DNA of 64,000 nucleotides from NCBI GenBank assembly GCA_023230565.1, contig JALNXD010000016.1, positions 973 through 64,972 on the forward strand, in the 5' to 3' direction. The stretch's first letter is position 1. Each line of letters opens with the position of its first letter. The translations under genes and the position numbers were made by a program. Under the pieces are notes generated by a model. It searched no databases and was not told where the DNA came from. It saw only the letters and a list, made by a program, of their open reading frames with translations. Shown here piece after piece: positions 46,529 through 64,000 of this stretch. This stretch comes from Syntrophales bacterium. GTDB lineage: Bacteria; Desulfobacterota; Syntrophia; Syntrophales; UBA2210.

Positions 46529-46536
46529 GAATTATT

Positions 46537-46585: not shown

Positions 46586-46745
46586 TAATGTACTTATACC
46601 CACCCTTACTTATGTATACTATTACTCTATTATTATTAATAAAAGAAGCATTATGATATATTCATAGATACTTATTTTTATGTTGATTTATATCTTCTTT
46701 GCGGGGTATAGTACGGGGTAAAATAAGCCTGAAGGAGCTCTTAAT

Positions 46746-47915
46746 ATGCCAATAAATACAAGGTATTATACGAAATACCCAGGCGTGTATTACATCATAG
46801 GAACGGCAATATCTACCGGTAAGCCAGAAAAAATTTATTACATCCGTTACCGTAAAGATGGAAAGGAGATTGAAGAAAAAGCTGGACGACAGTTTGAGGA
46901 TGATATGACTCCGGCACGTGCGGCGCAACGTCGTACTAAACGTATTGAAGGAGAATTATCAAATAAAGAAAGACGTGAGGCAATTGAGGCAGAGAAGCAA
47001 GCACAAGAAAACAAGTGGACAATAGATCGACTATGGGATCTTTACAAAACCACTCTCACAAATGACAAAAGCCGTAAAGTGGATGATAGTAGGTATAAAA
47101 AATACATTAAAGATCGATTCGGAGTTAAGGAACCTCATGAATTAATATTACTTGACGTCGATCGATTGAGATTAAGACTATCTAAAAAATTATCTCTACA
47201 AACCGTCAAACATATTCTGACGCTCCTTGACAGGATCATCAATTTCGGAGTAAAGCGCAATCTCTGTCAGCCACTTTCATTCCACATCAAAAAGCCACAA
47301 GTAAATAATATTAAAACCGAGGATCTGTCGCCTGAACAGCTCAAAAAGCTCTTGGAGGCTATTGAGAAGGATGATAACGTAAATGCAAAAGGCATGATGA
47401 AAATGGCTCTCTATACAGGCATGCGTCGAGGAGAAATGTTCAAACTTAAATGGAACGACATCGACTTTGAACGTGGATTCATTGCGATTAAAGATTCGAA
47501 AGGCGGAGTTGACCAGAAGATTCCCCTCAATGATGCTTCGCGAAAGATGCTTCAGTCACACCCGAAAACAAGAAGCTCTTTTGTATTTCCTGGTCGTGAT
47601 GGAGTACAGAGAGTCAAAATAGATCATGCTGTCGGCCGGATCAAGAAGAATGCTGACTTACCAAAAGAATTCCGACCACTCCACGGCTTGCGACACGTCT
47701 ATGCATCAATGCTGGCGTCAAGTGGCAAAGTCGATATGTATACGCTTCAGCGTCTTCTTACACACAAAAGCTCTGTTATGACTCAGAGATATGCACATCT
47801 TCGTGATGAGGCACTTCGTGGCGCAGCTGATCTTGCTGGATCAATTATTGAAGATGTGGAGAAGAAAAAGATTAATAACCAGAAGGTTGTAAACATCGAA
47901 GACCATAAAAATTAG
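46746..47915 (+). CDS. int: Tyrosine recombinase / phage-type integrase
   Basis: Catalytic residues in TGMRRGE, HGLRHVYAS and LLTHKSSVMTQRYAHL. Confidence 0.9.
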   Translation: MPINTRYYTKYPGVYYIIGTAISTGKPEKIYYIRYRKDGKEIEEKAGRQFEDDMTPARAAQRRTKRIEGELSNKERREAIEAEKQAQENKWTIDRLWDLYKTTLTNDKSRKVDDSRYKKYIKDRFGVKEPHELILLDVDRLRLRLSKKLSLQTVKHILTLLDRIINFGVKRNLCQPLSFHIKKPQVNNIKTEDLSPEQLKKLLEAIEKDDNVNAKGMMKMALYTGMRRGEMFKLKWNDIDFERGFIAIKDSKGGVDQKIPLNDASRKMLQSHPKTRSSFVFPGRDGVQRVKIDHAVGRIKKNADLPKEFRPLHGLRHVYASMLASSGKVDMYTLQRLLTHKSSVMTQRYAHLRDEALRGAADLAGSIIEDVEKKKINNQKVVNIEDHKN

Positions 47916-47982
47916 AGGTCCTATTGACATTTGGGCGGTGTTGTATTACTTTTACAACAGGAAAGAAAAAGGAGGTGAAAAT

Positions 47983-48363
47983 ATGGCCGCCCCCGAGACA
48001 TTTGGCGAATATTTTAAACAAAAAAGGATCGAAAATAATATAACTCTAAGAGAATTTTGTCGGGTGAACGGCTTTGATCCCGGAAATATAAGCAAAATTG
48101 AGAGAGGGCTCTTCCCACCTCCGCAATTGAAGGAAACACTTGAAAAATATGCAAGAGCACTCAACATTCAAGAGGGGACAGATGATTGGTATGAATTCTG
48201 TGATTTAGCCGCAACAAGCGCCGGCAAAATACCCCCCGACATGGTTTCAAATGAAGAATTGATGAAGGCGTTGCCAGTGTTATTCAGAAAAGTGAGAGAT
48301 AAAGATTTTGATAATGAGGATTTGGATAAGCTTATAGGCGCGATTAAAAAGGAACTGCGCTAA
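47983..48363 (+). CDS. XRE-family HTH regulator
   Basis: FGEYFKQKRIENNITLREFCRVNGFDPGNISKIERG. GGAGGTG lies 5 nt before the ATG at 47983. Confidence 0.8.
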   Translation: MAAPETFGEYFKQKRIENNITLREFCRVNGFDPGNISKIERGLFPPPQLKETLEKYARALNIQEGTDDWYEFCDLAATSAGKIPPDMVSNEELMKALPVLFRKVRDKDFDNEDLDKLIGAIKKELR

Positions 48364-48968
48364 TGGTTGAAGCACCGTATCTGAAATACGTTGATGTCAC
48401 GCAGGAAGTTGAATCATTTTTACAAATATATCATCCATCTCGGACTATTCCTATTCCGGTTGAAGAAATAATTGACCTACAGTTGAAAATCAATATTTAT
48501 CCCTTTCCAAGGCTCTATAAAGATTTTGGCCTTAACGGATTCCTCAGCTGCGATCGGTCAACGATCTATGTAGATGAATACCAGTACGAGCAATTTTATG
48601 AAAAATACCGGTATACGCTTGCTCATGAGCTTGGGCATTTTGTGCTTCATAAGAATCTTTATGAAAATTTTAATTTTGAGAATGCAATTCAATATGTGGA
48701 ATGGAGAGAATCAATGTCACCAAATGATATCGACTGGTTTGAAAAGCATGCCGATTGGTTCGCAGAACAACTTTTAGTGCCAGCGAATGCTTTGACGGAT
48801 GCCTGCCAGAACATAATCAATATATATCAGCATGTATATCAAAAATACAAAGATTCTCCCGATGATTTTTGGTCTTATGCTTCCAGTGAAATTGCACGAT
48901 CATTTGATGTAAACCAGCCAGTTGTCGAAGTTAGGATCAAACGAGAAAAGTTGAATTATTCGTATTGA
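48363..48968 (+). CDS. ImmA/IrrE-family (DUF955) metallopeptidase
   Basis: HEXXH motif in YTLAHELGHFVLH. The start overlaps the XRE stop (TAATG). Confidence 0.85.
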   Translation: MVEAPYLKYVDVTQEVESFLQIYHPSRTIPIPVEEIIDLQLKINIYPFPRLYKDFGLNGFLSCDRSTIYVDEYQYEQFYEKYRYTLAHELGHFVLHKNLYENFNFENAIQYVEWRESMSPNDIDWFEKHADWFAEQLLVPANALTDACQNIINIYQHVYQKYKDSPDDFWSYASSEIARSFDVNQPVVEVRIKREKLNYSY

Positions 48969-49027
48969 AGGCTTTTCCCCTTATGTGAGCGTAATTAAGC
49001 CTGTCGTTAGATTTTACTTACAACTAT

Positions 49028-50149
49028 TTGAACGATGTGAAAATGAAGGATCTTGAAAAGACTGAGAAGGTAATTCAGGAATTAATTTTTGACATTACCC
49101 GTGAGAATTTTCTCTCTGATATATCTTCGTATGATAATCGTGACCTTTTAAAACTTGACGGGATACTCTTTTTTGCCTGTGCTGATGCTGTTATAAGACT
49201 TCTTGGGATTAACCCCGAGATTTCCGACATGTGGATTGTACTGGATGAAGCCGCTCTATTTGCAAAGGAATTGACACCGGAAAGAATCGCAAAATTATAT
49301 TTACAAACCGGCGATGAAATCGCCGTTGTTGAACTGATTTACCATCGGGTGAATAGGCATCGGACTCAAGAGGAAGTATTGCGTAGAGTAACTCATCTAA
49401 AATATGGAGGAAATAGACTGTTTAATTTTATAGCTCTTACTAATCAAGACAATCTTGACAAGCTTCTTCGAGAGTACGGGTCGTGTGTAAAAGCTTTTCG
49501 ACATAATTGTGGCATAGGTAGCTCCAGTTTGGATAATGCTCTAAGAGGCAAATATTTTAAAGGAGCAGACGATATTAAAGGAAAGGCTCTTGTTGCGCTG
49601 TATGAGTCTCTTAATGAGTTGAAAGAAAATGTTAAGGTTTCAGAAATAGAAGAACTTGAACCCATCCCACTTTCGCGCTCAGTGAATCAACTTAAATGGG
49701 AAGCGGCTAAAACAGGAATCATGCGTGTGAAACTTGCAGCAACAATTCAAACATACTTGCCGATACTTGAAGGTACGGCAGAAAAGATCCCATTAAAAAT
49801 GCATGATAGGTTTAAGAGTCAGCGAGTAAAAGAGGGAAGAGAAATTCTAGAAAGCGGGGATGTATCTTCTCACGATATTGACAAAATTCTTATAGACGAT
49901 CCCCCCAGACGTTTTAAACGTTCTGGATCGAAGAAAAAGCGGGAAGGTGTTGTTGCGGCGATTGCACTGCAGGAAACCTGCCGAATACTCATTTCTCGAG
50001 CGCGTGATCCGGAAGTAGCAAAGAAGGCAATCACCATGATTGTAAGAGGATATTCAACTGCTGAGATTAGAGCGGAGACAAGGATGAGCGAAAGACAGAT
50101 TCGAGAATATAAAAAACAGCTTAAGGACGTTTCCAGCCTTGATCTGTAA
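49028..50149 (+). CDS. Hypothetical protein with C-terminal HTH-like segment
   Basis: Long ORF with coherent composition. The C-terminus MIVRGYSTAEIRAETRMSERQIREYKKQL looks like a sigma-r4/LuxR-type HTH. The start is uncertain (TTG 49028 or ATG 49043). Confidence 0.5.
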   Translation: MNDVKMKDLEKTEKVIQELIFDITRENFLSDISSYDNRDLLKLDGILFFACADAVIRLLGINPEISDMWIVLDEAALFAKELTPERIAKLYLQTGDEIAVVELIYHRVNRHRTQEEVLRRVTHLKYGGNRLFNFIALTNQDNLDKLLREYGSCVKAFRHNCGIGSSSLDNALRGKYFKGADDIKGKALVALYESLNELKENVKVSEIEELEPIPLSRSVNQLKWEAAKTGIMRVKLAATIQTYLPILEGTAEKIPLKMHDRFKSQRVKEGREILESGDVSSHDIDKILIDDPPRRFKRSGSKKKREGVVAAIALQETCRILISRARDPEVAKKAITMIVRGYSTAEIRAETRMSERQIREYKKQLKDVSSLDL

Positions 50150-51746
50150 AAAACTTGCAGCCTTGTGCAAGTTTGAAGGTGATCTCCATACCGTTCGGGT
50201 TTTCAAAGGTTGTCCAGTTCTTTGCTTTGATGATCCGAGCCTTTCCGGGTTCCATTGTAAGATATAGGCGCGCTTTCTCAAGCCCTCGACCGCCACCCAG
50301 GCCATAATCAGCGCCTTTGTTTTTTTGTATGGCAATTACAGCAATTCCTTTTTTCAGCTTGTCGTAGATTTCTTTAATGAGACCGCCAATTTTGTAAAAC
50401 TCATCATACACTTCCAGAAAATCTATAATATTGATTGCATCGGGCTTTATTACGTCGGCAAAGTTTGAAGCTCTTTCTTTTGGATGGAATTTCCAGTCTT
50501 CAAGTGGAGCATCAAATTTTTTCAGTCTTTTACGCAATTCGAGTGCGCCCATTTCGGATGAAAAATAGTATATCTCGTACCGGGCCATGTTTTTCTGAAC
50601 AAGATTCAGAAGAAAAGCTGTTTTCCCTGAATTCGGCTCGCCTGCAACGACGATGATATTACCCGGCATGATCTGCACATGGTCTTCGATTCGGAAGGGC
50701 CATCTGATATCCATTGCAGTATCGGTCGCACTAATAAAATCAATATCCTCGCACTGTGTGTTAACAGTGCGATATACTCCGTTTTTGTTTCCATGTTTTT
50801 CAATAATTCCAGCTTTATGGAGCCGGTGTACAGCAGCTCGAACAGCATTTTTTTCTTCTTTTGTAACACTTTGTAACGCTTGGTAACACTCTGTAATACT
50901 CCAGTAACCATTTGTAACGCTTACCCAGTCCTCGGCATCCTTGTGAATATTGCGTTCCTTGCGCCTCGCTCTCTCCAAAACGGAGTCAATCTTAACTTGC
51001 GCCTCTTTTGGCGAAAAAAGGGGATTACAATTATTTGCAAGTATATCAAGGATATGCCTTGCATCACTTTCAGACATGCCGCCTTTGATGAGGCAATGTG
51101 CAGTGTGAAAAAGTGAATCATCCCGTTTACCCTGTTCAAAACTTACTGTAACATCTGTAACGTCTTGTAACGGTTGGTAATGATCTGTAACGCTGTTATA
51201 ACTTCCTCTTACATTCCTAATGCTAGAATTTATATTATTTATATAGGCACGCGGCAATGGGCCGGGCTGAATGTCATCAATGCTTAAACCTTCTACCCAC
51301 TGATACCCCTTACCAGTTCCATTTCTAGACGGTGGTGCAACGACATATCCGCCTCTGCCCCTGAAATCGATTCCAGGCAAAGCGCGTGCATTGATTGTCA
51401 GGTTCAAGTCCTCAGGATATTTAAAATATAGATGCGTACCCCCGCGCGGCGTTTGAACTGTGGGGGTTACTATTCCTTCGGGAAAATACTCAAGCTCTAT
51501 GTCTTCACTATAGTCCTGGGCATAGCGGTCAATATCAACAACACAGATTTCGCTTATCGGACCTGTAACGACTCCGATCATCGCCTTGGGGTATTGATTC
51601 CACCATTCCCGAATTTCATCTTCTGTGGGTAACCGGTCTTGAAATTCTTTCCATGCGATGAGAGGTTTCTTGTTTTTCCCAACAGGTATTATTGAATATC
51701 CATTTCTCAGATATTGGATTGCCGCCTTCAGATAAATTTTTTCCAT
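50121..51746 (-). CDS. Bifunctional primase-polymerase (PrimPol) fused to a P-loop helicase-like replicase
   Basis: N-domain: GYSIIPVGKNKKPLIAWKEFQ, VVDIDRY, TPRGGTHLYF, GYVVAPPS. C-domain: Walker A GEPNSGKT. The ATG at 51746 has GGAGGTG upstream. The track ORF extends to 51899. Confidence 0.8.
   Translation of the reverse strand: MEKIYLKAAIQYLRNGYSIIPVGKNKKPLIAWKEFQDRLPTEDEIREWWNQYPKAMIGVVTGPISEICVVDIDRYAQDYSEDIELEYFPEGIVTPTVQTPRGGTHLYFKYPEDLNLTINARALPGIDFRGRGGYVVAPPSRNGTGKGYQWVEGLSIDDIQPGPLPRAYINNINSSIRNVRGSYNSVTDHYQPLQDVTDVTVSFEQGKRDDSLFHTAHCLIKGGMSESDARHILDILANNCNPLFSPKEAQVKIDSVLERARRKERNIHKDAEDWVSVTNGYWSITECYQALQSVTKEEKNAVRAAVHRLHKAGIIEKHGNKNGVYRTVNTQCEDIDFISATDTAMDIRWPFRIEDHVQIMPGNIIVVAGEPNSGKTAFLLNLVQKNMARYEIYYFSSEMGALELRKRLKKFDAPLEDWKFHPKERASNFADVIKPDAINIIDFLEVYDEFYKIGGLIKEIYDKLKKGIAVIAIQKNKGADYGLGGGRGLEKARLYLTMEPGKARIIKAKNWTTFENPNGMEITFKLAQGCKFFTDQGWKRP
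50861..50920. repeat. Iteron cluster A: six GTAAC/GTAAT cores at 10-11 bp spacing
   Basis: TTGTAACACT TTGTAACGCT TGGTAACACT CTGTAATACT CCAGTAACCA TTTGTAACGC. The cluster lies inside the replicase gene. Confidence 0.6.
51146..51193. repeat. Iteron cluster B: five GTAAC/GTAAT cores at 9-10 bp spacing
   Basis: CTGTAACAT CTGTAACGT CTTGTAACGG TTGGTAATGA TCTGTAACGC. It has the same orientation as cluster A and lies 285 bp from it. Confidence 0.6.
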
Positions 51747-51922
51747 TTCGCACCTCCATAAATAATGCCTGGTACCCCCTATACGGGCTGAAACTTGAAG
51801 AAACGGCGGTGACAAAAAAATCCATGGCAAAAGATTAACAAACCGAAAAAAACCACCGCCGTTTTTCAGAAGAACTGACCGTATATAGGGCGTAAGCAAA
51901 AATTTAGTAATGGAGGTGACCC

Positions 51923-52102
51923 ATGAAGCTTATCGCTGAAATTAGCCAAAGCGGTGTTGACAGAGTTTCGATTCAGTCAACTACCGATCGAGAGGAACGT
52001 CTGGGTGAAGTTTTACTTCATCTCATTCGGCCTCACTTGAAAAACATCAACGCTGATTTGAAGGTTTTTGGAGAACATCTCTATGATTTGAAGAAAAAGT
52101 AA
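51923..52102 (+). CDS. Small hypothetical protein (59 aa)
   Basis: ATG preceded by GGAGGTG. It is below the ORF-track size cut-off. Translation: MKLIAEISQSGVDRVSIQSTTDREERLGEVLLHLIRPHLKNINADLKVFGEHLYDLKKK. Confidence 0.4.
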   Translation: MKLIAEISQSGVDRVSIQSTTDREERLGEVLLHLIRPHLKNINADLKVFGEHLYDLKKK

Positions 52103-52113
52103 GGGGATTACTG

Positions 52114-52298
52114 ATGATTTTGCTGAGAAGGATGCAGCAGACAGACTCGGATTGGCTGTCCAAACCCTTCGCAACTGGCGATGTAAGGGGAGAGGACCAC
52201 GGTACATAAAATTTTCCAGTCGGAGCATCAGATATGCGGTTGAAGATCTTAAGGAGTTTTGTGCCTTACATTCAATTACACCTGATCGACATACATAA
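52114..52298 (+). pseudogene. Excisionase/AlpA-like HTH gene with an apparent 1-nt frame break just after its start codon
   Basis: The frame 52116-52298 encodes DFAEKDAADRLGLAVQTLRNWRCKGRGPRYIKFSSRSIRYAVEDLKEF... That frame has no ATG/GTG. The well-placed ATG at 52114 (AAGGGG 7 nt upstream) is in the +1 neighbouring frame. Confidence 0.5.
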
Positions 52299-52346: not shown

Positions 52347-52922
52347 ATGCCGCCATCAAGAATCGATAAAATTAAATTATCACGAATGCTTAGAGAGGGT
52401 AAAACGCAGAAGCACTGTGCTAAAGTCTTTGGTGTTACCGAGGGGGCTATCAGCCAAGCGAAGAAAGAGCTGAATTTAAGCGTTGTCAAGAACGTAGCCC
52501 TGGAAAACGCTCATCGTGTCGTAGATAAGAATATCGATGCGATCAGTCAGCTTCAGAAGATAAATGGCTACGCGAACGAGCTTCTTGACCTGCTCATGCG
52601 CTGGAATCGAGGCGATGGCGAAGCTTTGCAGATTCTCGAAACTCAAGTGAGGAAAGTTCGTGTAAAGGGATCGGAAGAAGAACTCTTTGAATACAAATTC
52701 AAGGACCCTCGCGAGTTGGCGTTAAGAGCGATGGCGGAGATTCGGGGGCAACTGAACCTTCAACTTGAAATATTTAGGATCCTTTACGATATGAGGGCAA
52801 TCGAGGAATTTCAACAGGAAGTGCTCGATGCGATCGGCGAGGTTCAACTGGAAGTGAGGGAGAGGATCATTTGGCGCCTGAAGGAACGGCGCGCCTTACG
52901 AGGAACCTTAGATGTTCGATAA
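52347..52922 (+). CDS. HTH-domain protein of unknown function (possibly small-terminase-like or a regulator)
   Basis: N-terminal GKTQKHCAKVFGVTEGAISQAKKEL. The rest is predicted helical. Confidence 0.55.
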   Translation: MPPSRIDKIKLSRMLREGKTQKHCAKVFGVTEGAISQAKKELNLSVVKNVALENAHRVVDKNIDAISQLQKINGYANELLDLLMRWNRGDGEALQILETQVRKVRVKGSEEELFEYKFKDPRELALRAMAEIRGQLNLQLEIFRILYDMRAIEEFQQEVLDAIGEVQLEVRERIIWRLKERRALRGTLDVR

Positions 52923-52961: not shown

Positions 52962-53324
52962 ATGATTGACAAAGATACCCTCTACAATAATTTGCTGACG
53001 TATATCGGAAATAGATATACCAATTGTTCAATTCCTCTTTTTCCCAGCGAGAAAAAGATTGCAGGATGTAAGAAAGCCTGCGAGGCATTTTGTCGCACCT
53101 TCCCCACCGAAATTCCGGGAAGCTATCAACCTCCAGAAAAAGAACCAGACGGCAACCTTACTGCGCGTTATACATTCTGGGTGAAAAACTTCACGGTAAT
53201 ATTTACAGTGTTTATCGTGAGGCCTGAACTCTGTGACAGGGCGAAAGGAGCTCCTGAATTGAACCCTTTTCTTAGGCAATTGGAACAATTTTGGTCAAGA
53301 AAAGAAAGGTTGAAAACTACATAA
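52962..53324 (+). CDS. Hypothetical protein
   Basis: ORF only; no recognisable motif. Confidence 0.3.
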   Translation: MIDKDTLYNNLLTYIGNRYTNCSIPLFPSEKKIAGCKKACEAFCRTFPTEIPGSYQPPEKEPDGNLTARYTFWVKNFTVIFTVFIVRPELCDRAKGAPELNPFLRQLEQFWSRKERLKTT

Positions 53325-53402: not shown

Positions 53403-53942
53403 TTGGAGCTCGCAGCAATTTATGGTCATATCGATGTGTTTGAACTTAAACAAATAAAACTTGATCCCACGCATAAAAGAGCAAGTGATATCCTCAGATG
53501 CTGCTGTTTTAGAGATAATAGCAAACTTCTGAAAATTCTTCTTGAAAAAGGATTTAATCCCAAGCAGATGGAAAACAAGGGATCGTCACTTATACAATCG
53601 ATAATTTCCTCAATGGACAGGGAATATAACCCTTACACATACAGAAAAGAAAAAAAAGATATCGATACGTGGAGTGCACGCGAAAAAATTAAGATGATAC
53701 ATATGCTTGTAAGATACGGTGCCAAATGGTTACCCAAAGATGATAGAGATATAAATTACATTCGACGATCATTACTAAAAATGAAGGATGATTATGTCAT
53801 GGAATTTGTCTGGATAATGTCAGAGTATCAGACCTGTACCCGTGCAAGTATCGAAATGCTTTTGAAGACGCCAAAAATACGCTCATTAGTTTCTCAACAC
53901 GCTGGTAGACTGAATGAACTGATGGCGGCGTTTAATTCATAA
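53403..53942 (+). CDS. Ankyrin-repeat-like protein, apparently N-terminally truncated
   Basis: The frame is open from 53331 and reads AGADPYAKG...SALELAAIYGHIDVFE...LKILLEKGFNP (ANK-like). It has no ATG, and the first possible start is the TTG at 53403. Confidence 0.45.
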   Translation: MELAAIYGHIDVFELKQIKLDPTHKRASDILRCCCFRDNSKLLKILLEKGFNPKQMENKGSSLIQSIISSMDREYNPYTYRKEKKDIDTWSAREKIKMIHMLVRYGAKWLPKDDRDINYIRRSLLKMKDDYVMEFVWIMSEYQTCTRASIEMLLKTPKIRSLVSQHAGRLNELMAAFNS

Positions 53943-54062: not shown

Positions 54063-54093
54063 AACCCTGTTTGACAAGAAACAGGGTTTTTTT
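54063..54093 (+). terminator. Rho-independent terminator
   Basis: AACCCTGTT-tgacaaga-AACAGGGTT followed by TTTTTT. Confidence 0.7.
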
Positions 54094-54185: not shown

Positions 54186-56459
54186 GTGGACATGAATACC
54201 GAAGTACATCAATCACAAGCAATTAATCTATTTACGTTTATACGTGAATTCGCACAGCTTAATCAAAAGCCTGTTGAAACACTTGACTCATATATCAAAA
54301 CCTTTTGGTTGGATCAGATACCGCATGAACCGGAGTGCAGCTGTGCGGCATGGGATGGCCAAGATGAGCATGACAATGAGATGACAATAGAGAATTGGCT
54401 TTCTATAGAGCGTCCTGAACGTCCTGATTTACCAAATGCACCAGAAACAACAGAACCTTGGATAAACAAAATTCAATGGGAAGACTCTTCAGTTGAATAT
54501 CCAGAGCTATATTCAAAAATTTTAAATCCGCAATGGGATATAAAAAGTTCTGAAGATGTACCTAAATTTTTGGAGCTGCAAGATTATCCTCACGTCAAAG
54601 AGACATGGGACAATTATATTGAGGACGCGTGGTGGCCGTGGGCGGAGAAAGATCGTGTCAAAGTACATGTGCAAGAATGTTATGATGCGCTATTCAGTTT
54701 GCACCGGACACAGCTTACAATGGGTGAGCAGTATGAGTTTTTGCTTGCCTCTGGATGTCTCCACTGGACTACGCCATCTGGAAGAAAAATAAAGCGACAT
54801 CTGTTGACGTTGCCGATTACCATTGAATTCGACTCTGTTAATGCAATCGTGTCAGTAAAATCGGCCGAAAGTACTGCAGAAGTCCAACTCGAAAGTGACA
54901 TGCTCGGGATAAATGAGCAACCAGGCATAGACATAGCAAATGATTCAGAAATAAGACGTGCGATGCTTGGGGGTAACCTGTTCCATCCAGATGCAAAGAC
55001 ATTATTAACGGCCTGGGTACAGGGACTAAGTTCAGAGGGAACGTTTAAAGATATCTTTTCCGAGGTGCAGGGTACATCGTCATCAAAGCCAGAAGTCTGG
55101 TTTGCGCCTGCACTGATCGTGCGTCGAAGGACCCAAAGAAACCTCATAGCGGCATGCGATGCAATCATCAAGAATCTTCAGACTAATGGTGCTGATATTC
55201 CCCAAGGAATTCGAAAGATCATTGGCGAACTCGGAGTGGATACCAATTCATTTTCTGATTATGACGATAACGAAGGTAATGAACGAAGTTATGTCGATGT
55301 GGGTGATGGGGAGATTTATTTTCCCCTCGATTACAACGATGATCAGAAGAGGATTTTACAAACGCTCAACAACCAGGCCGGTGTGCTCGTGCAAGGCCCC
55401 CCAGGTACAGGCAAGTCTCAGACCATCGCTAACCTTATCTGCCACCTATTGGCAACAGGTAAACGCATCCTGGTGACAAGCCAAAAAGCCCCAGCATTAC
55501 GTGTTTTAAAAAATAAGCTCGGGGAATATGCCCCCGATGTTGCAAACATGTGCGTTATGGTACTTGGAGAAGGCAATGATGAACAGCAGGAGTTGCGGCG
55601 TTCGGTTACGGAGATTGTAAACCGCTATTCGAATTGGTCGGATCGGCATTCACAAAAGAAGATCCAGGAATTTCGAACAACACTTCGAAAAGCACGAGAG
55701 TCGGAGGCCAAAGCCATCGAGAATCTATGTGCACTTCGTCAGAAAGAAACAGAAAATTTCCCCTTCGGCAACTACACAGGAACTCTGGAGCAAATTGCTC
55801 GTCAAATCCGCGACGAAGAAAGTCGTTTTACATGGTTCCGTGATCGGCTTCCCGGGGACTGCTCGCTGCTTGATGCACCTTTACCGCCCTTACCGATAGT
55901 GGATGAGTGGCTTACAAAAATCCTCTCCTTTTTGAGGGAAATCTCTACAGACGAAGAAGAGCGCTGTAGCAAACATCTGCTGAATCTCGATCAGGTGGTT
56001 GATCCCGTTGAGTTCTCCCGTATTGTTAAAGAAGAAAAAGTGGCGCTTGATGCTGTTGAAACACAACGGGAGTTTTTATCGGACCAGTGGCAAAAGGGGG
56101 TGGATCAGGCAGACGACAAAATTCTGATATCAATGTTAGGTGAACTTGATGAATATTTAGGGTGCCTCCGTTCATTTTTGAACAATGGAACCAGTTGGTT
56201 AAAACTGGCGGCGCAGGATGTGCTGAGTGGTAATGCGGCTCGATGGCAGGCACTGCATCACAGGAGCCAAGACCTCTTAAATGAAATAAGAGAAAAAACC
56301 ACCGTGTCGGAGATCTCGAAATTTCAGGTATTGAAGTTCGGTCCCAACGAGCAGTCCTGCAGGATGCGCGTGACCTTCGGGCTCATATTGCTCAGCAAGG
56401 TCGCCTTGGATTCTGGATTTTACGCCCTGCCTGTGTCAAACAGGCACTATATCTGCTAA
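54186..56459 (+). CDS. SF1 (Upf1/DNA2-like, DUF4011-type) helicase-nuclease, N-terminal segment up to a frame break
   Basis: Walker A VLVQGPPGTGKSQTIANLI with a DUF4011-like N-region. The last ~45 codons before the stop look non-native. Confidence 0.8.
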   Translation: MDMNTEVHQSQAINLFTFIREFAQLNQKPVETLDSYIKTFWLDQIPHEPECSCAAWDGQDEHDNEMTIENWLSIERPERPDLPNAPETTEPWINKIQWEDSSVEYPELYSKILNPQWDIKSSEDVPKFLELQDYPHVKETWDNYIEDAWWPWAEKDRVKVHVQECYDALFSLHRTQLTMGEQYEFLLASGCLHWTTPSGRKIKRHLLTLPITIEFDSVNAIVSVKSAESTAEVQLESDMLGINEQPGIDIANDSEIRRAMLGGNLFHPDAKTLLTAWVQGLSSEGTFKDIFSEVQGTSSSKPEVWFAPALIVRRRTQRNLIAACDAIIKNLQTNGADIPQGIRKIIGELGVDTNSFSDYDDNEGNERSYVDVGDGEIYFPLDYNDDQKRILQTLNNQAGVLVQGPPGTGKSQTIANLICHLLATGKRILVTSQKAPALRVLKNKLGEYAPDVANMCVMVLGEGNDEQQELRRSVTEIVNRYSNWSDRHSQKKIQEFRTTLRKARESEAKAIENLCALRQKETENFPFGNYTGTLEQIARQIRDEESRFTWFRDRLPGDCSLLDAPLPPLPIVDEWLTKILSFLREISTDEEERCSKHLLNLDQVVDPVEFSRIVKEEKVALDAVETQREFLSDQWQKGVDQADDKILISMLGELDEYLGCLRSFLNNGTSWLKLAAQDVLSGNAARWQALHHRSQDLLNEIREKTTVSEISKFQVLKFGPNEQSCRMRVTFGLILLSKVALDSGFYALPVSNRHYIC

Positions 56460-56509
56460 ACAGTGTAACTGTTGACGGTCGTAAGTGCGATAAGCAGGAG
56501 ACACTGGAG

Positions 56510-59200
56510 ATGCTGATCGATTGGCTGGAGCTTTCGCAGGCAATTAGGCAACTTGATGAACAGTGGGCAGCGGTGATGAATCCAAAACAGGACAATATTC
56601 CCCTCAATCAGCAGATCAGCGGCTACAAACATGCTCATTTAAAGCTGGATGCCGTCTTTGAACTTCGAACATTGTCCCACCGCCTTGATGAAAGCCTCAA
56701 ACCCTTGGGTCGTAGTGTTTCGCCTGCATGGCATGAGCAAGGGGAGGTTGAGAAACTTCGAAACATTTTAGAGGCCCAGATTGCACAGAGGCAGCTAAGA
56801 AAAGCGTCACTAATAATTGATAACTTGGAGGATTCCGTTAGATCATCCTGCCTTCATCCTGATGCGGCGCCTGAGAATCATGCTCTCCGCAACGCAATTA
56901 AGGGTCGATTTATTGATGAGTATACAAGGTCCCATTCAGAATTAAAAGGGCTGTGGAACTTGCGGAGGTCGGTTGAAGAGCGTGATCGATGGTATGCGGA
57001 GCTAATGAACAAACTTCCATGCCTGGCTGTGGATCTGAGAGAATCGTACACTGACCCTGAGTGGGATTCACGTCTGGCCGAAGTGACGGATGCCTGGAAT
57101 TGGGTATGTGCCGATGCATGGCTCCATCAGATAACCGATCCTGAAGCAGAAAAACTATTGGATCGCCGAATAAAGCAATGCAGGAAAGAAAGCTCTTTGG
57201 CTCTGTCATCGCTGGCAGCTGAGCTGGCCTGGAAGCATTGCATGAACAGCATGACAGAGGGTCACTTCCAAGGCCTTATGGCATGGCGGAAGGCTATGGA
57301 AAAATTAGGGAAGGGAACAGGCAAATACGTAGAACGCAACAGAAGCATTGCACGTGAACGATTGGAGGAGTGCCGTGGTGCAATCCCTGCCTGGATCATG
57401 CCACTATATAAGGTCTTGGATACGGTTGCTATTGGAAAGGGTATTTTCGATGTAGCAATTATTGATGAGGCAAGTCAGTCGGGAGCAGATGCGTTGTTTC
57501 TAACTTTCCTGGCGAAAAAAATAGTGATTGTCGGGGACGATCAGCAGATCCGGCCGGCAAACGTCGGAATTGACTATAATGACGTTCACCAGCTTCAAAG
57601 TCGTTTCCTGCGTGACATCCCCAAATGGGACATCTTCGATCCAACTGGTAGCCTCTTTAGCATTGCTGAAGTTCGTTTTGGAAACCCCATACGCCTGCGA
57701 GAACATTTCCGCTGCATGCCGGAGATTATCGCATTTTCTAATCGTCTCTGCTATCAGGATCAGCCGCTTATACCATTGCGTCAGTTCGGTAATGATAGAC
57801 TCAAACCGGTTTTATGCACCCATTATATTGAAGGGGGTTATCAGGAGGGACGTAAAACAAACCCCAGAGAAGCAGAGGCGATTTGTGAAGCAATCGTGCG
57901 CTGCTGCGAAGATTCCCTTTACGAGGGCAAGAGTTTTGGTGTGATCAGCTTGCTCCACTCATCTGAACAGGACCGTTTGATCGAACAACTCCTGTTCAAG
58001 CGCCTCGACGCTGAGGAAATAGTAAATCGAAACATAGTATGCGGCGACGCCTATGATTTTCAGGGTGATGAAAGGGATGTCATATTTTTAAGCATGGTAT
58101 CTGCACGAAGTAATAACGGCCGAATTGGTACGATGGCTGATGAAAAAGCAAAACGTCGCTTCAATGTTGCCGTCAGTCGTGCGCGTGATCAAGTCTTTCT
58201 CTTTCACTCGGTTCAAGAGAATGAGTTGGGGCAGAACTGTTACCGTCGCCGATTGCTCGCTCATATGAAACAGCCAGAGCCGGATGTTTCTGTATTGCCT
58301 CCTGAGGTTGATTCTATAACAGATCTTCGACGTATTGCTGAAACTGCTAAAAGAAACTTCGATTCTCCCCCACACCCCTTCGATAGCTGGTTTGAAGTGG
58401 ATGTCTATCTCATTATCGCGGAGCAGGGGTACATGGTAATCCCCCAATATAAAATACATGGGTACCGCATTGACTTGGTTGTTGAGGGTGAACATAGGAA
58501 GCTTGCTGTCGAGTGCGACGGTGACAGATGGCACGGTCTTGAGCGACATGAGGAGGATCTTCGTCGTCAACGGGAATTGGAACGCTGTGGTTGGGAGTTC
58601 TTTCGTGTGCGTGGCAGCAGTTTTTATCGTGATCCCGCAAAAGCCATGCTTCCTCTCTGGGAGATCCTGAGTAGTTCGGAATTCAGTTCCAGGGATGTTG
58701 ATAGTAAGGACCATGAAGAACCCCGGCGGCAGAGAAGTGATGGAGAAGGCTACCCCGAAGAAAGAAAAGAAGAAGCCGTCAATGATGACGCAAAGACAGA
58801 CAGCACAAGTAAAACAGGCACTTCTTCAGAATTTTCTTCGGGCGATGCCAACGAAAGGGATGAAGAAACAACAAAAGGCAGCTCTCTGGAAGCAGGCGAA
58901 CGATCCTATGGGCAACACACAATCGATGATGTTTTGTCAATGTCGAGCAGGCAACTTGGCAGAATCATATGCGATATCTTGGAAAAATGCCCGAATTACT
59001 CCTCAAAAAAAGATGATCTAACCAAGCGGGTCTGTGGTTATTTTGGTGTCCTGACGAGGGGACGGCCACGGCAAAAGCTCGAAAAGAAAATTGGGTGGGC
59101 CATTTCTCATCTCAAGAAGGTCGAAAAAATAGAGGTTTACAGGGCAAAAAATATGCGGGTACGGCTTTTATCTCCACCGAGTCAAGAGAAGTTGTTTTAA
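56510..59200 (+). CDS. Same helicase-nuclease, C-terminal segment: helicase motifs II-VI plus a DUF559/Vsr-like endonuclease domain
   Basis: VAIIDEASQ, VIVGDDQQIRP, GDAYDFQGDERDVIFLSMV, FNVAVSRARDQVFLFHS. The nuclease region is YRIDLVVEGEHRKLAVECDGDRWH...GWEFFRV. This frame is open from 56285. Confidence 0.85.
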   Translation: MLIDWLELSQAIRQLDEQWAAVMNPKQDNIPLNQQISGYKHAHLKLDAVFELRTLSHRLDESLKPLGRSVSPAWHEQGEVEKLRNILEAQIAQRQLRKASLIIDNLEDSVRSSCLHPDAAPENHALRNAIKGRFIDEYTRSHSELKGLWNLRRSVEERDRWYAELMNKLPCLAVDLRESYTDPEWDSRLAEVTDAWNWVCADAWLHQITDPEAEKLLDRRIKQCRKESSLALSSLAAELAWKHCMNSMTEGHFQGLMAWRKAMEKLGKGTGKYVERNRSIARERLEECRGAIPAWIMPLYKVLDTVAIGKGIFDVAIIDEASQSGADALFLTFLAKKIVIVGDDQQIRPANVGIDYNDVHQLQSRFLRDIPKWDIFDPTGSLFSIAEVRFGNPIRLREHFRCMPEIIAFSNRLCYQDQPLIPLRQFGNDRLKPVLCTHYIEGGYQEGRKTNPREAEAICEAIVRCCEDSLYEGKSFGVISLLHSSEQDRLIEQLLFKRLDAEEIVNRNIVCGDAYDFQGDERDVIFLSMVSARSNNGRIGTMADEKAKRRFNVAVSRARDQVFLFHSVQENELGQNCYRRRLLAHMKQPEPDVSVLPPEVDSITDLRRIAETAKRNFDSPPHPFDSWFEVDVYLIIAEQGYMVIPQYKIHGYRIDLVVEGEHRKLAVECDGDRWHGLERHEEDLRRQRELERCGWEFFRVRGSSFYRDPAKAMLPLWEILSSSEFSSRDVDSKDHEEPRRQRSDGEGYPEERKEEAVNDDAKTDSTSKTGTSSEFSSGDANERDEETTKGSSLEAGERSYGQHTIDDVLSMSSRQLGRIICDILEKCPNYSSKKDDLTKRVCGYFGVLTRGRPRQKLEKKIGWAISHLKKVEKIEVYRAKNMRVRLLSPPSQEKLF

Positions 59201-59428
59201 TAAACGAATTCAAGAATATACTTCTGCCAGGTGCTGATTGATGGTCGTAAGGTTTTTAATAGTGAAGAGGCTAAGAAAGCTTTTGGATCAACGCTTAAGA
59301 TTGTCCATGCCTTATATGCTGCACACGGTTTTTGAAATCAAGGCCCAATTCATAGTGCGACGCCGCCTGTTTTTTTATGATATAAGATTCGAACCGCTTT
59401 TTTATGTGATTAAGGAAGAATAGACATA

Positions 59429-60982
59429 ATGAAAAACAACAACGGGAAATCTCTGGAAAACTGGATATGGGATGCTGCATGCAGCATTCGGGGGGCTCAG
59501 GACGCCCCCAAGTATAAGGATTTTATCCTGCCGCTGGTCTTTACCAAGCGGCTCTGTGATGTGTTTGACGACGAGCTGAACCGGATTGCCGAAAAGGTCG
59601 GATCCCGGGCCAAGGCCTTCAAACTGGTGACGCGTGATCAGAAACTGGTCCGCTTTTACCTGCCTCTCGAGCCGAAAAAACCGGACGGTCCGGTCTGGTC
59701 GATCATTCGCACGTTATCCGATGCCATCGGGGAAGGCCTTACCACTTACCTACGGGCCATCGCCAAGGCCAACCCCATGCTGGAAGGAATTATCGATCGG
59801 GTGGATTTCAATGCCACCACGCACGGCCAGCGCGATATCGACGATGACCGCCTGTCCAATCTGATCGAGAAGATCTCCGAAAAACGTCTGGGGTTGAAGG
59901 ATGTGGAGCCGGACATCATAGGCCGCAGCTACGAATACCTCATCCGCAAGTTTGCCGAGGGCGGGGGGCAGTCCGCGGGCGAGTTCTACACGCCCAAAGA
60001 GGTGGGCATGGTCATGGCGAAGATTATGGACCCGGAGCCGGGCATGGCCATCTACGATCCCTGTTGCGGGTCGGCGGGTCTGCTTATCAAGTGCGAACTG
60101 GCGCTTGAAGAGAAAATGGCGCTTCGCAGCAAGGACAAATACGCGCCCCTGCAGCTCTATGGCCAGGAATATATCGGCAATACCTGGGCCATGGCCAACA
60201 TGAATATGATCATCCACGACATGGAAGGTGAAATCGAGATCGGCGACGCCTTTCGCAACCCCAAATTCCGACAGGGCGGGCAGCTTCGGACCTTTGACCG
60301 CGTGACGGCCAATCCCATGTGGAATCAGAACTGGTTCACCGACAAGGATTACGACAACGATGAACTGGGCCGCTTTCCACAGGGCGCAGGGTTCCCCGGC
60401 AAGCAGTCCGCCGACTGGGGGTGGGTCCAGCACATAGCCGCCTCGCTCAACGGGAGCGGCCGGGCGGCGATCGTCCTCGATACCGGCGCCGCCTCGCGCG
60501 GTTCGGGAAATGCCGGCAAGAACAAAGAGAAGGAAGTCCGCAAGTGGTTTGTGGAAAACGACCTTATAGAGGGCGTTGTCTATCTGCCGGAGAACCTCTT
60601 CTACAACACCTCGGCCCCGGGCATCCTGCTCTTTCTCAACCGGAATAAACCCGAAGGGCGGCAGGGGAAGCTCTTCCTGATCAATGCGAGCAGGGTTTTC
60701 GCCAAGGGCGATCCCAAAAACTACCTGCCCGACGACGGGATTGAACGAATCGCTTCGGTTTTTTTGGACTGGAAGGAAGAGGAGAAGTTTAGCCGCATCG
60801 TGGACAAGGCGGAAATTGGCAAGAACGACTATAACATCTCTCCGTCGCGCTATATTCATACAAATGATGCCGAGGAATACCGGCCGATAGCCGAGATAGT
60901 GGCGGAACTGGATGCCCTGGAAACTGATGTGGCGGAAACGAATGCTGCCCTGCGAGCGGTGCTGGATAAGTTGGGGGTGTGA
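59429..60982 (+). CDS. hsdM: Type I R-M N6-adenine DNA methyltransferase (HsdM)
   Basis: HsdM N-domain (LWDAACSIRG-type), motif I DPCCGSAGLL, motif IV ANPMWN. Confidence 0.9.
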   Translation: MKNNNGKSLENWIWDAACSIRGAQDAPKYKDFILPLVFTKRLCDVFDDELNRIAEKVGSRAKAFKLVTRDQKLVRFYLPLEPKKPDGPVWSIIRTLSDAIGEGLTTYLRAIAKANPMLEGIIDRVDFNATTHGQRDIDDDRLSNLIEKISEKRLGLKDVEPDIIGRSYEYLIRKFAEGGGQSAGEFYTPKEVGMVMAKIMDPEPGMAIYDPCCGSAGLLIKCELALEEKMALRSKDKYAPLQLYGQEYIGNTWAMANMNMIIHDMEGEIEIGDAFRNPKFRQGGQLRTFDRVTANPMWNQNWFTDKDYDNDELGRFPQGAGFPGKQSADWGWVQHIAASLNGSGRAAIVLDTGAASRGSGNAGKNKEKEVRKWFVENDLIEGVVYLPENLFYNTSAPGILLFLNRNKPEGRQGKLFLINASRVFAKGDPKNYLPDDGIERIASVFLDWKEEEKFSRIVDKAEIGKNDYNISPSRYIHTNDAEEYRPIAEIVAELDALETDVAETNAALRAVLDKLGV

Positions 60983-60985
60983 TAA

Positions 60986-62308
60986 ATGACGGAATGTAAA
61001 AGTTCACCTGAACTCGCAATGCTGCCATCTGATTGGCCCTGTTTTCAAGTTGATGATATTTTCCATATTCAACAAGGCAAACAGGTGTCCCAAAAAAACC
61101 GACTTGGTGACAATCAAAAGCCATTTTTGAGAACAAAAAATGTGTTGTGGAGGCGACTTGATCTATCTGAGTTGGACCAGATGCATTTCACTGATAATGA
61201 TGAAGAACGGCTCGCTCTCCATAATGGAGACCTTCTTCTCTGTGAAGGCGGGTGGGTTGGTCGAACCGCTATTTGGCGTGACGAAATAGAAAGCTGTTAT
61301 TACCAGAACCATTTGCACCGCCTTCGCGTATCCAATGAAACAGCTGATCCAATGTTTGCCCTTTTTTGGTTCTGGTATGCATTTGAATTTGGGAACATTT
61401 ACTTCGGTCATAAGAATGTAACAACAATCCCTAATATGTCGAAATCGCGATTAGGTGGGCTTCCTATGCCACTTCCACCTCTCTCCGAACAACGCCGCAT
61501 TGCAGCGGTATTGTCGCTGGTACAGAAAGCGATTGAGGAGCAGGAACGGCTGATCGCGTTGACTACCGAACTGAAGAAGACCCTGATGTACAAGCTCTTC
61601 ACCGAGGGCACCCGCGGCGAATCCCAGAAGCAGACCGAAATCGGCCCTATACCGGAGAGTTGGAAGTTGCAGCGTTTACAAAATTTGTGTGACCTTATCG
61701 TAGACTGTCCACACACAACTCCGAGATTTGTTGACTTTGGTGTACGTATTGTTCGCAATTTCAACTTCCGAGATGGGAAATTTATTGCAGAACCTTCTTT
61801 TTACACGACGGAACAAGAATATAAAAATAGAACTAAAAGAGCTATACCAACATCTGGAGATGTTTTATTTAGTAGAGAGGCTCCAATTGGTGAGGCTTGC
61901 GTTATTCCTTCTGACGTGCGCATGAGTTTAGGGCAGCGTACTATGCTTCTGCGACCTAAATGCGACAAACTAGATTCACATTTCCTTGTTTATAGTTTTT
62001 ATTCCAATAATGTTAAAAAATGGATGGTTACTACTGCAGGAGGAATGACTGTCCCTCATTTGAATGTAGCGGATGTTAGACAAATGTTTGTCCCTGTTGC
62101 TCCGCTTGAAGAACAATTTATTATATCAAAATACCTGCTTAGTATTGAGATTAAACTTGAATTATGTGTGAGCATTAAAAATAAATTAAATGATCTATTT
62201 CGAACACTCCTGCACCAACTCATGACAGCTCAAATCCGCGTCAACGACCTCGACCTCGCCGAATTGGGTATTGAGTTGAGCGAAGGACAACAGGAGGTAG
62301 TTTCATAA
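60986..62308 (+). CDS. hsdS: Type I R-M specificity subunit (HsdS), two target-recognition domains
   Basis: Central and C-terminal conserved helices (LPPLSEQRRIAAVL...; LEEQFIISKYL...LLHQLMTAQIRV) flank two low-GC variable domains. Confidence 0.9.
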   Translation: MTECKSSPELAMLPSDWPCFQVDDIFHIQQGKQVSQKNRLGDNQKPFLRTKNVLWRRLDLSELDQMHFTDNDEERLALHNGDLLLCEGGWVGRTAIWRDEIESCYYQNHLHRLRVSNETADPMFALFWFWYAFEFGNIYFGHKNVTTIPNMSKSRLGGLPMPLPPLSEQRRIAAVLSLVQKAIEEQERLIALTTELKKTLMYKLFTEGTRGESQKQTEIGPIPESWKLQRLQNLCDLIVDCPHTTPRFVDFGVRIVRNFNFRDGKFIAEPSFYTTEQEYKNRTKRAIPTSGDVLFSREAPIGEACVIPSDVRMSLGQRTMLLRPKCDKLDSHFLVYSFYSNNVKKWMVTTAGGMTVPHLNVADVRQMFVPVAPLEEQFIISKYLLSIEIKLELCVSIKNKLNDLFRTLLHQLMTAQIRVNDLDLAELGIELSEGQQEVVS

Positions 62309-62332
62309 TCATATCATTGGGGGAGAGATATA

Positions 62333-62782
62333 ATGGAAGCACGTAACAGGGACATGCAAGACTGGTATGGCAAGATAAAGCGTGGAGAGATAAAACTGCC
62401 TAGATTCCAGCGATTCGAGGAGTGGGACAGGCACCGTATTTGCAGTCTTTTGGAAGCAGTGATTCATAACCTTCCCTTGGGAATAACACTGGTGTTGGAA
62501 GTCGGAGATCAGGAGAAGTTTATCTCCCGGTTTCTGGAAACGGCCCCTCAAAACGGCGGACGTGTCTATGAGCAACTGCTTGACGGTCAGCAGCGACTGC
62601 ACTTTGGCGGGCGTTTTACAACAATTACGACTGGGAAACCTACTTCATCTATATCAAGGCGTTCGATAACTACGACAAAGATGAAGACCGCGAAGACATG
62701 TCGGTCTTTTTCCGGGGACGGTATATTAAAAAGAACGGAGAAAAGTATCCGATTTGGTGTGATGATCCGGCGCAATGTTTGA
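62333..62782 (+). CDS. GmrSD-like DUF262 domain, N-terminal segment; native sequence ends at about 62596
   Basis: KLPRFQRFEEW and DGQQR motifs. Everything after DGQQRL looks out of frame. Confidence 0.75.
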   Translation: MEARNRDMQDWYGKIKRGEIKLPRFQRFEEWDRHRICSLLEAVIHNLPLGITLVLEVGDQEKFISRFLETAPQNGGRVYEQLLDGQQRLHFGGRFTTITTGKPTSSISRRSITTTKMKTAKTCRSFSGDGILKRTEKSIRFGVMIRRNV

Positions 62783-63981
62783 AAAGGGGGTTTATCCCCA
62801 CTCATTTACTGAAACCGGAAGATATGCAGAACGAGATCGATGCATGGATCGAAAAAGAAACCACGGCTCTGGAGCCGGAGGACGGCAAGGATGAATTAAA
62901 GGTATTCTACGATTTTAAAAAACGCGTGAGCGACAAGATAAAAGATCTGCGGTCGATTGTTGCCAACTATAACCTTCCGTACCTGTCGCTATCCCCGCAT
63001 ACGGAAAAGAGTGTGGCACTAAGTGTGTTTATCAACATGAACACCAACAGCAAGCCTCTCTCTACCTATGACATCATCGTCGCGGAAGTAGAAAACGTGA
63101 TGGGGCGATCACTACATGACCTGCAGGATGAACTGGATGAGAAAGATCCAAACATCGGAAGATATTCCGAGCTCTCAGACATGATTCTCACTACTTCGGC
63201 ACTCCTGCAGAATGCCCTGCCGAACCAACGAGGCGCCTGGGATATGGATAAACGGATCATGGTGGAAAACTGGGAGGTTATGGAACGTGGCCTAAGCCGG
63301 ATGGCAGAGTTTCTGAAAAATGAGGGAATCTTTGATCGGCAGCGTCTTCCCACCAATGCTGTGCTGGATGTTATTGCCGCTCTTTACGCGGAGATACCGG
63401 AATATGGAGACAAAAGAGGGCAGGATGAGCTTTTATTGAAAAAATACCTTTGGCATTCTTTTTTCACAGATCGCTATGAGAATGCCGCTGCTACTCATGC
63501 CTGCTCGGATTTTGTCGCGCTGAAAAAGGTGATTCGTGCGGAAACCAAGGATAGCGGGGACAGCTACAGCATCGGTGAAGTTCCCATCTTCAAGGAGCAC
63601 GCGCTGGTTGAAAAAGAGGAACTGCTGACCGCCGAATGGCCTAAACGGGCCACTATTCGTGGTCGGGCGATTCTTGCGGTAGCATGCCGTTTGGGAGCGC
63701 AGGACTTCTCAACCGGAGAACGTTTGGATGTCAACAATATTGACCAGCGTCACTACCATCATGTGTACCCCGACGCGTTACTAAAGGAAGCAGAAATCAA
63801 CAGTTTCCTGGCACTGAATTGCGCACTGATCTCGGACAAGACCAATATTTCCATTGGTCGCAAAGATCCATTGGAATACATGAAGGATAGGTACAAATGG
63901 ACATCAGAAGAGATAGTGAGTGAACGGCTTCAATCTCATTTGATACCGATTCACGAGTTGGCTAATGGAGGATTGACGTAA
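62698..63981 (+). CDS. Remainder of the GmrSD-like protein (rest of DUF262 plus the DUF1524 His-Me nuclease domain)
   Basis: From 62596 this frame reads TALWRAFYNNYDWETYF..., continuing the DGQQR motif. The C-terminus HYHHVYPDALL...NCALISDKTNISIG is the DUF1524 signature. Confidence 0.8.
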   Translation: MSVFFRGRYIKKNGEKYPIWCDDPAQCLKRGFIPTHLLKPEDMQNEIDAWIEKETTALEPEDGKDELKVFYDFKKRVSDKIKDLRSIVANYNLPYLSLSPHTEKSVALSVFINMNTNSKPLSTYDIIVAEVENVMGRSLHDLQDELDEKDPNIGRYSELSDMILTTSALLQNALPNQRGAWDMDKRIMVENWEVMERGLSRMAEFLKNEGIFDRQRLPTNAVLDVIAALYAEIPEYGDKRGQDELLLKKYLWHSFFTDRYENAAATHACSDFVALKKVIRAETKDSGDSYSIGEVPIFKEHALVEKEELLTAEWPKRATIRGRAILAVACRLGAQDFSTGERLDVNNIDQRHYHHVYPDALLKEAEINSFLALNCALISDKTNISIGRKDPLEYMKDRYKWTSEEIVSERLQSHLIPIHELANGGLT

Positions 63982-64000
63982 GATGCTTTGAATGGACACC

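Follow-up and report, generated by a model that had tools for sequence, protein, structure and literature searches.

A probable satellite-type defence island, apparently decaying, in a tRNA-Glu gene of a Syntrophales bacterium

Most of what is known of phage satellites with defence genes comes from a small number of well-studied hosts. In phage-inducible chromosomal islands (PICIs), which include the Staphylococcus aureus pathogenicity islands (SaPIs) and the Gram-negative int-alpA-pri/rep-terS type, a site-specific integrase at an attachment (att) site is combined with a repressor-type switch, an excisionase, a primase or replicase with an adjacent or embedded iteron origin, and a small-terminase-like gene; capsid, tail and lysis genes are lacking, and accessory defence genes stand at one end. 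Two systems of other kinds are also relevant here. The O protein of bacteriophage lambda binds the iterons of ori-lambda within its own coding region, and type I restriction–modification (RM) operons may embed further defence genes (PrrC/RloC, DUF262). Satellites with an integrase, a primase-helicase, AlpA/excisionase, terS and RM or abortive infection (Abi) cargo have been described, and the capsid-forming PICIs (cfPICIs) and virion-encapsidated integrative mobile elements (VEIMEs) are likewise small integrative elements with a primase/helicase, AlpA/excisionase, terS homologues and sometimes RM or Abi genes (PMC9618062). We analyzed a 64,000-nucleotide stretch of a Syntrophales bacterium (the window; bases 973–64972 of contig C16, 65,066 bp, in a 90-contig, 3.46-Mb draft assembly), whose right-hand part, from about 46.6 kb onwards, holds an integrative element that resembles PICIs in these traits, with a candidate small terminase and, in its assembled part, no capsid, tail or lysis gene found.

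We conclude with high confidence that this element is a discrete integrative defence island in a tRNA-Glu gene. That it is a phage satellite is reasonably probable, and we are moderately confident of the fuller picture, a satellite-type defence island of which the present copy is decaying. The part from 46.6 to 54.1 kb would be a core laid out as in a phage satellite, and that from 54.2 kb to the right end its cargo. In our reading, the island is of a known kind and represents a new variant at family level. Unlike PICIs, it has a PrimPol-helicase as replicase, with the origin inside the gene, and an XRE/ImmA pair as regulator, oriented in the same direction as int; no sequence match links its TerS-like protein to known PICI TerS, its sister islands carry their own gpA-type large terminase (TerL), and its cargo, at ~10 kb or more, is larger. 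No helper phage is known for it, and its host is an anaerobe. Some relatives of the island resemble cfPICIs and VEIMEs in having a capsid gene, whereas the present copy has no capsid, portal or protease gene, and encapsidation in its family would be a prediction. A preliminary description of the window had proposed a replication-competent island, either satellite or mobilisable element; its observations are partly confirmed by our analysis and its interpretation is supported.

In the scheme that we propose, the island would have integrated, through tyrosine-integrase recombination, into the 3' half of a tRNA-Glu(UUC) gene. The XRE/ImmA-type switch would lift repression upon damage or a phage signal, the PrimPol-helicase would fire the iteron origin inside its own gene, as lambda O does at ori-lambda, and a Nu1-like small terminase would direct the large terminase of a helper phage to package island DNA. 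Two kinds of insertion sequence (IS), an IS3-family and an IS21-like element, have come to flank the position expected for hsdR. The gene content, the two att ends, the iterons, the frame breaks, the IS junctions and the composition of the relatives are seen in the sequences; the small-terminase function, the dependence on a helper, the route of induction and the loss of mobility are the parts of this scheme that we infer.

The two ends of the island at tRNA-Glu

The att-like repeat from which the preliminary description started is the 3' part of tRNA-Glu(UUC). This attL (46531–46586, minus strand) comprises the 3' 47 nt of the tRNA and 6 nt downstream, and the 53 nt at 46531–46583 are identical to an intact tRNA-Glu locus on another contig, C54 (C54:18335–18387; the intact tRNA-Glu is C54:18303–18378). 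ARAGORN finds no whole tRNA within the window. Altogether, the tRNA-Glu 3' sequence is present in three copies in the assembly (44526–44570, 46531–46586 and C54), each followed by its own terminator hairpin. A tyrosine integrase gene (46746–47915, plus strand; Pfam Phage_integrase, 5.2e-32; phrog_1) lies next to attL, and between the two stands a 20-nt motif, GCGGGGTATAGTACGGGGTA (46701–46720, plus strand), a candidate arm-type site of the integrase. In the form GCGGGGTATAGT(A/G)CGGGGTA, the motif occurs just twice in the 3.46-Mb assembly, in the same orientation, at a distance of 115 nt inward from attL in one case and of 62 nt inward from the C54 tRNA-Glu in the other. An attL next to int, with the direct repeat and the end motif recurring at C54, is the arrangement of a PICI-type satellite.

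On C54, the interval between the motif and the contig end holds a short YgjP-like gene, its 5' end cut by an IS21-like element. The encoded fragment is 52–72% identical to the YgjP proteins that end operons whose hsdM is 72–87% identical to that of the island, and ~30–40% identical to the other YgjP of the genome. This identity pattern indicates that C54 carries the far end of the island's own hsd operon. A second att site, as expected earlier for a discrete element, exists on C54, with the 53-nt repeat, the 20-nt motif and the cognate YgjP. A comparison with related genomes, which had also been proposed, was made: in a genome of the same genus (G001), where the flanks are conserved, the flanking gene, tRNA-Glu and a giant gene stand in the same order, and none of the island genes is found at this tRNA.

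Defence cargo, frame breaks and the right-hand gap

Annotation of the open reading frames (ORFs) of the window with Pfam, PHROGs and PADLOC yielded a gene list and order in agreement with the preliminary description: int, XRE, ImmA, a 373-aa protein, PrimPol on the opposite strand, a 59-aa ORF, an xis-like gene, a helix-turn-helix (HTH) protein and two further ORFs precede the defence genes. A terminator-like hairpin (54063–54088) forms the border between core module and cargo, and the G+C content rises from 0.38–0.44 in the core to 0.47–0.57 in the cargo. PADLOC matched the models MTase_I, Specificity_I and PDC-S37, and the defence genes of a multilayered payload are present as described earlier; what had not been foreseen is that payload and excisionase are largely broken in the present copy.

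The first cargo gene (54186–59200, plus strand) encodes a superfamily 1 (SF1) helicase (AAA_11/AAA_12) fused to an MTES_1575/DUF559 nuclease. It had been described as one protein of ~1,670 aa. The content is as stated, and intact homologues of 1640–1690 aa, 45–50% identical, span the junction; here, however, the gene is split into two ORFs, 54186–56459 and, in another frame, 56285/56510–59200, with the break at an A6 run (56293–56298). The PADLOC candidate system PDC-S37, defined as a single protein of ~1550–1700 aa that has an SF1 helicase and an MTES_1575 nuclease, gives the best defence-model match to each half (3.5e-19 and 1.4e-50). The homologues stand alone, in variable, defence-like neighbourhoods, and we found no paper that names PDC-S37.

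Further along the plus strand, hsdM (59429–60982; N6_Mtase, 2.9e-91; PADLOC MTase_I, 1e-167) and hsdS (60986–62308; Methylase_S; PADLOC Specificity_I, 4.5e-82) are both present and intact. They are followed in the hsd operon by a GmrSD-like (DUF262-type) gene (62333–63973, plus strand), which is broken twice over: a frame break at 62596 divides it into ORFs 62333–62782 and 62584–63981, and its 3' end is cut by an IS3-family element that supplies the last two codons and the stop. Read through across 62596, the gene encodes a full GmrSD_N domain (66.9 bits), so the earlier assignment stands for the domain and fails for the integrity of the gene. There is no Pfam match to DUF1524 or a C-terminal nuclease domain, and the combination of DUF262 and a DUF1524 His-Me nuclease domain in one intact protein that marks the GmrSD type is not seen in this gene.

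Relatives of hsdM with 72–87% identity were collected from 80 loci (L068–L147) across many phyla, including Desulfobacteraceae, Nitrospirota, Verrucomicrobiota, Gammaproteobacteria and cyanobacteria. Their genes are ordered hsdM, hsdS, hsdR and a short YgjP (~105 aa), which is always the last gene, and variable inserts of 0–6 kb are frequent between hsdM, hsdS and hsdR. The order of this operon family is hsdM–hsdS–insert–hsdR–short YgjP, and in the island the GmrSD-like nuclease is the insert. The hsdM–hsdS–GmrSD-like order, the 0–6 kb inserts of the relatives and their YgjP-like last gene recall the type I RM operons with embedded defence genes; the island differs from these in that its embedded gene is broken and truncated and its hsdR is not in the assembly.

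That hsdR had been expected just past the window, where only 94 bp of contig C16 remain. The break is due to the IS3-family element, which starts at 63974 (left end 63974–64000, plus strand, TGACGTAAGATGC...; identical ends lie on 10 other contig ends) and is present in at least 11 copies. The earlier statement that no transposase is visible is accordingly true inside the window, and the contig breaks 94 bp later inside this IS. The IS3-family element makes 3-bp target duplications, and its partner junction was sought through the duplication GAT; of ~11 right-end junctions, seven are assembled, and not one of these begins with GAT. The IS21-like element has at least four copies in the genome. 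Both junctions that truncate island genes, in the GmrSD-like and in the YgjP-like gene, are common to other copies of the respective IS.

The cognate hsdR was not recovered from the assembly, so that of the three genes of a type I RM system the island retains intact hsdM and hsdS. One of the two canonical hsdR genes in the assembly is part of a complete system on C48; the other lies at the left end of C16, beside a different YgjP. The latter was considered as the missing partner and rejected: its YgjP is of another type, and its likelier partner is an hsdMS pair at C10:84941–88726. The smallest contig in the assembly is 4,367 bp long; shorter pieces therefore appear to have been dropped, and genes on pieces between IS copies are invisible. 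The cognate hsdR has either been lost or lies on a dropped piece of ~3–4 kb between the two IS elements.

A third frame break lies in the core. The excisionase/AlpA-type gene (52114–52298, plus strand) had been listed as an xis-like HTH ORF; read-through yields HTH_17 at 33.2 bits (cut-off 27), in agreement with that call, and the gene is frameshifted, as three-frame translation gives the ORF a start only if the run at 52118–52121 is lengthened by one T. In the excisionase, the helicase-nuclease and the GmrSD-like gene alike, the break is one missing base. Outside the island, in the remaining 46 kb, the overlapping ORF pairs flagged by a script are all separate complete genes, so that within the window the breaks are confined to the island. 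A crude genome-wide count from overlapping ORFs (379 pairs) is uninformative on frameshifts.

These observations bear on an alternative that we consider unlikely and yet take seriously, namely that the island is intact and active, that the breaks are consensus errors in a variable, possibly low-coverage region, and that hsdR is on a dropped short contig between IS copies. Two of the breaks do lie in homopolymer runs (A6 and T4), all three amount to the loss of a single base, and the size floor of the contigs is joined by the absence of four IS3 right-end junctions, among them the partner of the one in the island. The break at 62596, however, is outside any run, the flagged ORF pairs in the remaining 46 kb are all unbroken genes, and the insertions that truncate the GmrSD-like and YgjP-like genes are real junctions that recur in other IS copies. 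From the frame breaks and IS insertions together, we take the island to be probably stuck in place, with at most the methyltransferase half still working. The copy would then illustrate how an island dies where it stands: after breaks in the excisionase and nucleases and hits by IS elements, there remain a tRNA hot spot that contains tandem remnants and a methyltransferase that has become an orphan. A count of defence systems on this genome would overstate the functional ones.

Replication and candidate packaging genes of the satellite-like core

The replicase ORF occupies 50121–51899 on the minus strand; the called gene probably starts at 51746 (50121–51746, 541 aa). It encodes a PrimPol domain (Prim-Pol, 2.9e-35) and a DnaB-like P-loop helicase domain (DnaB_C, 30.5 bits), and its family exceeds 1000 proteins (E <1e-30). 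Inside the gene is a candidate origin (50863–51191, plus strand) made of two phased clusters of GTAAC/GTAAT iterons, at 50863–50918 and 51148–51191. Nine of the iteron cores are GTAAC and two are GTAAT; they share one strand and a phasing of ~10 bp, and nine GTAAC on one strand within 330 bp compare with 68 in 64 kb. Replicase homologues have phased repeats at the same position of the gene with other motifs (GTTAC on contig C70 of the same genome, ACTACG at two loci, CGTGACA at one). By analogy with lambda O/ori-lambda, the pattern is consistent with an embedded origin that changes its specificity along with the replicase. In both cases, phased iterons stand in the initiator's own coding region, between two domains; the predicted initiator of the island differs in being a PrimPol-helicase and not an O-type protein. 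To judge by sequence, the PrimPol and DnaB-like domains and the position-conserved candidate iterons amount to the replication module of a PICI-type satellite, which is in line with the replication competence proposed in the preliminary description.

The gene that follows the excisionase gene encodes a 191-aa protein (52347–52922, plus strand) in which an N-terminal HTH is combined with long helices. Judging from its gene position, its size, this architecture and weak matches to terS PHROGs, which were obtained with 13 of 28 family members (best, 1.5e-3), the protein is probably a Nu1-like small terminase. The family has 1843 relatives, which are 68–77% identical and lack any Pfam domain. In 8 of 13 genomes of the same taxonomic order and at 17 of 34 IMG/VR loci, the end of the gene overlaps with the beginning of a gpA-type (GpA_ATPase) TerL gene directly downstream, and the linked TerL matches large terminases in 900 phage records. 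The island protein itself gave nothing significant with Pfam or PHROGs, no homologue by tblastn against 50,697 phage records and no match in a sequence-profile search of the Protein Data Bank (PDB). Its AlphaFold model has a predicted local distance difference test score (pLDDT) of 65, and Foldseek returned no match below E = 0.001 from BFVD or PDB, with the small terminases of G20c and P74-26 appearing only at E >1. Given the lack of a significant fold or sequence match, the TerS function is deduced from position. A TerL remnant was sought after the 191-aa gene, and none was found.

Several observations concern the family of the 191-aa protein as a whole. Its members (loci L045, L047–L063 and L148–L181) are 68–77% identical across families and orders, and the neighbouring replicases just 40–55%. 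The TerL after the 191-aa relatives is also conserved, at 70–76%. On two IMG/VR contigs (L149 and L168), integrases 56–62% identical to that of the island occur together with 191-aa relatives, and there an ORF of 532–550 aa without a Pfam match overlaps the 191-aa relative in the usual place of TerL. On the large IMG/VR contigs with 191-aa relatives, the ORFs downstream of TerL have no Pfam match.

Relatives of the PrimPol protein stand in small integrase islands of 7–12 kb, some of them with a TerL or an HK97-type capsid gene; an initial scan of genome contigs with PrimPol had shown no related loci. One relative combines xis, PrimPol and an HK97 capsid gene. In another, which neighbours bacteriophage exclusion (BREX) genes, PrimPol and an integrase occur together with a GpA_ATPase large terminase and a relative of the 191-aa protein at 65% identity; in a third, of 7.5 kb, no structural gene was recognised. 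The most complete comparison is offered by genome G036, in which an entire relative of 11.8 kb lies between 36-nt repeats of the tRNA-Glu 3' end, in the order int, 247-aa protein, TerL, TerS-like protein, 196-aa protein, PrimPol, resolvase and SocA-type antitoxin. A second island is found in the Syntrophales genome itself, on C70 (10,570 bp): an integrase and a 227-aa ORF accompany a PrimPol 75% identical to that described above, a small HTH protein and, on the minus strand, a tRNA 3' fragment, which we read as tRNA-Arg(UCU). Its cargo is a type III RM pair, res and mod, with mod cut by the same IS3-family element.

Two alternatives to the satellite reading have to be weighed against these data. 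According to the first, which we regard as quite unlikely, the island is an integrative element of another kind, an integrated plasmid-like replicon or mobilisable island that excises, replicates from the PrimPol origin and spreads by conjugative mobilisation or transformation, and the 191-aa protein is a transcription regulator. The present copy indeed has no recognisable packaging or structural gene: no capsid, tail or lysis family was found in the assembled 17.4 kb and the C54 end, as had been noted earlier for capsid and tail genes. The 191-aa protein gives weak matches of HTH type only and nothing significant in fold searches, and TerL is missing from some relatives as well. Against this, Pfam, PHROG and PADLOC detected no relaxase, conjugation, oriT-associated, coupling-protein or type IV secretion family in any ORF of the assembled part, as had been noted earlier for conjugation genes. 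Moreover, the 191-aa family is repeatedly coupled to TerL, with stop and start overlapping, and sister islands carry TerL or capsid genes. Of the satellite and the mobilisable element between which the preliminary description had not chosen, these same points favour the satellite. The second alternative is the remnant of an ordinary prophage or an integrative and conjugative element, its structural or transfer genes either deleted or situated between the two IS elements, where the sequence is unassembled. This is very improbable, since at the C54 right end the last gene of the hsd operon is directly followed by the end motif and the tRNA, which leaves only the position of hsdR open, and intact relatives of 7–12 kb have no tail or lysis genes.

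Several findings weigh against the picture of a decaying satellite that we prefer. Including cargo and IS elements, the island measures at least ~21 kb, above typical satellites (range applied here, ~7–20 kb). The link between C16 and C54 is one that we infer, and it is not assembled. The homopolymer context of two of the three frame breaks has been mentioned. The TerS assignment rests on gene position and architecture, with no Pfam domain, weak terS PHROG matches and no significant fold match. Finally, the island has no TerL or capsid gene, and no gpA-type TerL, as a candidate helper of that type would provide, is found in the assembly.

Beyond this one copy, we tentatively propose, with the case falling a little short of evenly balanced, that the island belongs to a large satellite family of Desulfobacterota-type anaerobes with in-gene iterons, a conserved 191-aa Nu1-like TerS and, optionally, a gpA-type TerL or an HK97 capsid. 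The replicase in such a family may be either a PrimPol-helicase or a Toprim-DnaB primase, and the iteron motif would change together with it. We found no published description of a family of this sort. If the proposal is correct, the family shuttles whole defence operons between tRNA sites. The island points to a family of the same kind in sulfate-reducing or syntrophic anaerobes, and two of the family traits are directly testable, an origin buried in the replicase gene and a very conserved candidate TerS, often with its own TerL.

Remaining core genes and neighbouring loci

Downstream of the integrase, a gene for an XRE-type HTH protein (47938–48363; HTH_3, 24.7 bits) overlaps that of an M78/ImmA-type metallopeptidase (48363–48968; Peptidase_M78, 36.5 bits; phrog_87), both on the plus strand; by its domains, the pair is a predicted ImmR/ImmA-like switch. 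The 373-aa protein (49028–50149, plus strand) belongs to a rare family with 34 representatives among 1.8 billion proteins. Pfam gave no family match, and the sole recognisable part is a C-terminal GerE/sigma-70-region-4-like HTH (profile matches at about residues 340–386); a single-sequence structure model had a pLDDT of 39.9 and was of no use. The 59-aa ORF lies at 51923–52102. Two ORFs of 120 aa (52962–53324) and 179 aa (53403–53942), both on the plus strand, have no family match, and an Rfam search of 43–64 kb gave no match.

To the left of attL, hipB (44801–45046; Pfam HTH_3) and hipA (45043–46245; HipA_C and Couple_hipA), on the plus strand, form an islet without an integrase between two tRNA-Glu fragments. 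Its outer boundary is an older, diverged copy of the tRNA-Glu 3' end (44526–44570, minus strand), recognised by matching 14-nt words and aligning with two mismatches. The hipBA islet does not belong to the island proper; it is a tandem remnant of older date that occupies the same att site. An MNT/HepT toxin–antitoxin pair (43727–44474) is located just outside the islet.

Elsewhere in the window, the gene at 36465–42683 encodes a 2072-aa protein with a CarboxypepD_reg domain, in a block with a G+C content of 0.59–0.61, far above that of the surroundings. At the left end of C16 (window 1–3107; C16:137–4079), the second type I hsdR mentioned above is accompanied by a full-length YgjP-like peptidase gene, and the two are preceded by a repeat common to the ends of C6 and C7. 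Besides the IS3-family and IS21-like elements, several other repeat families occur at contig ends.

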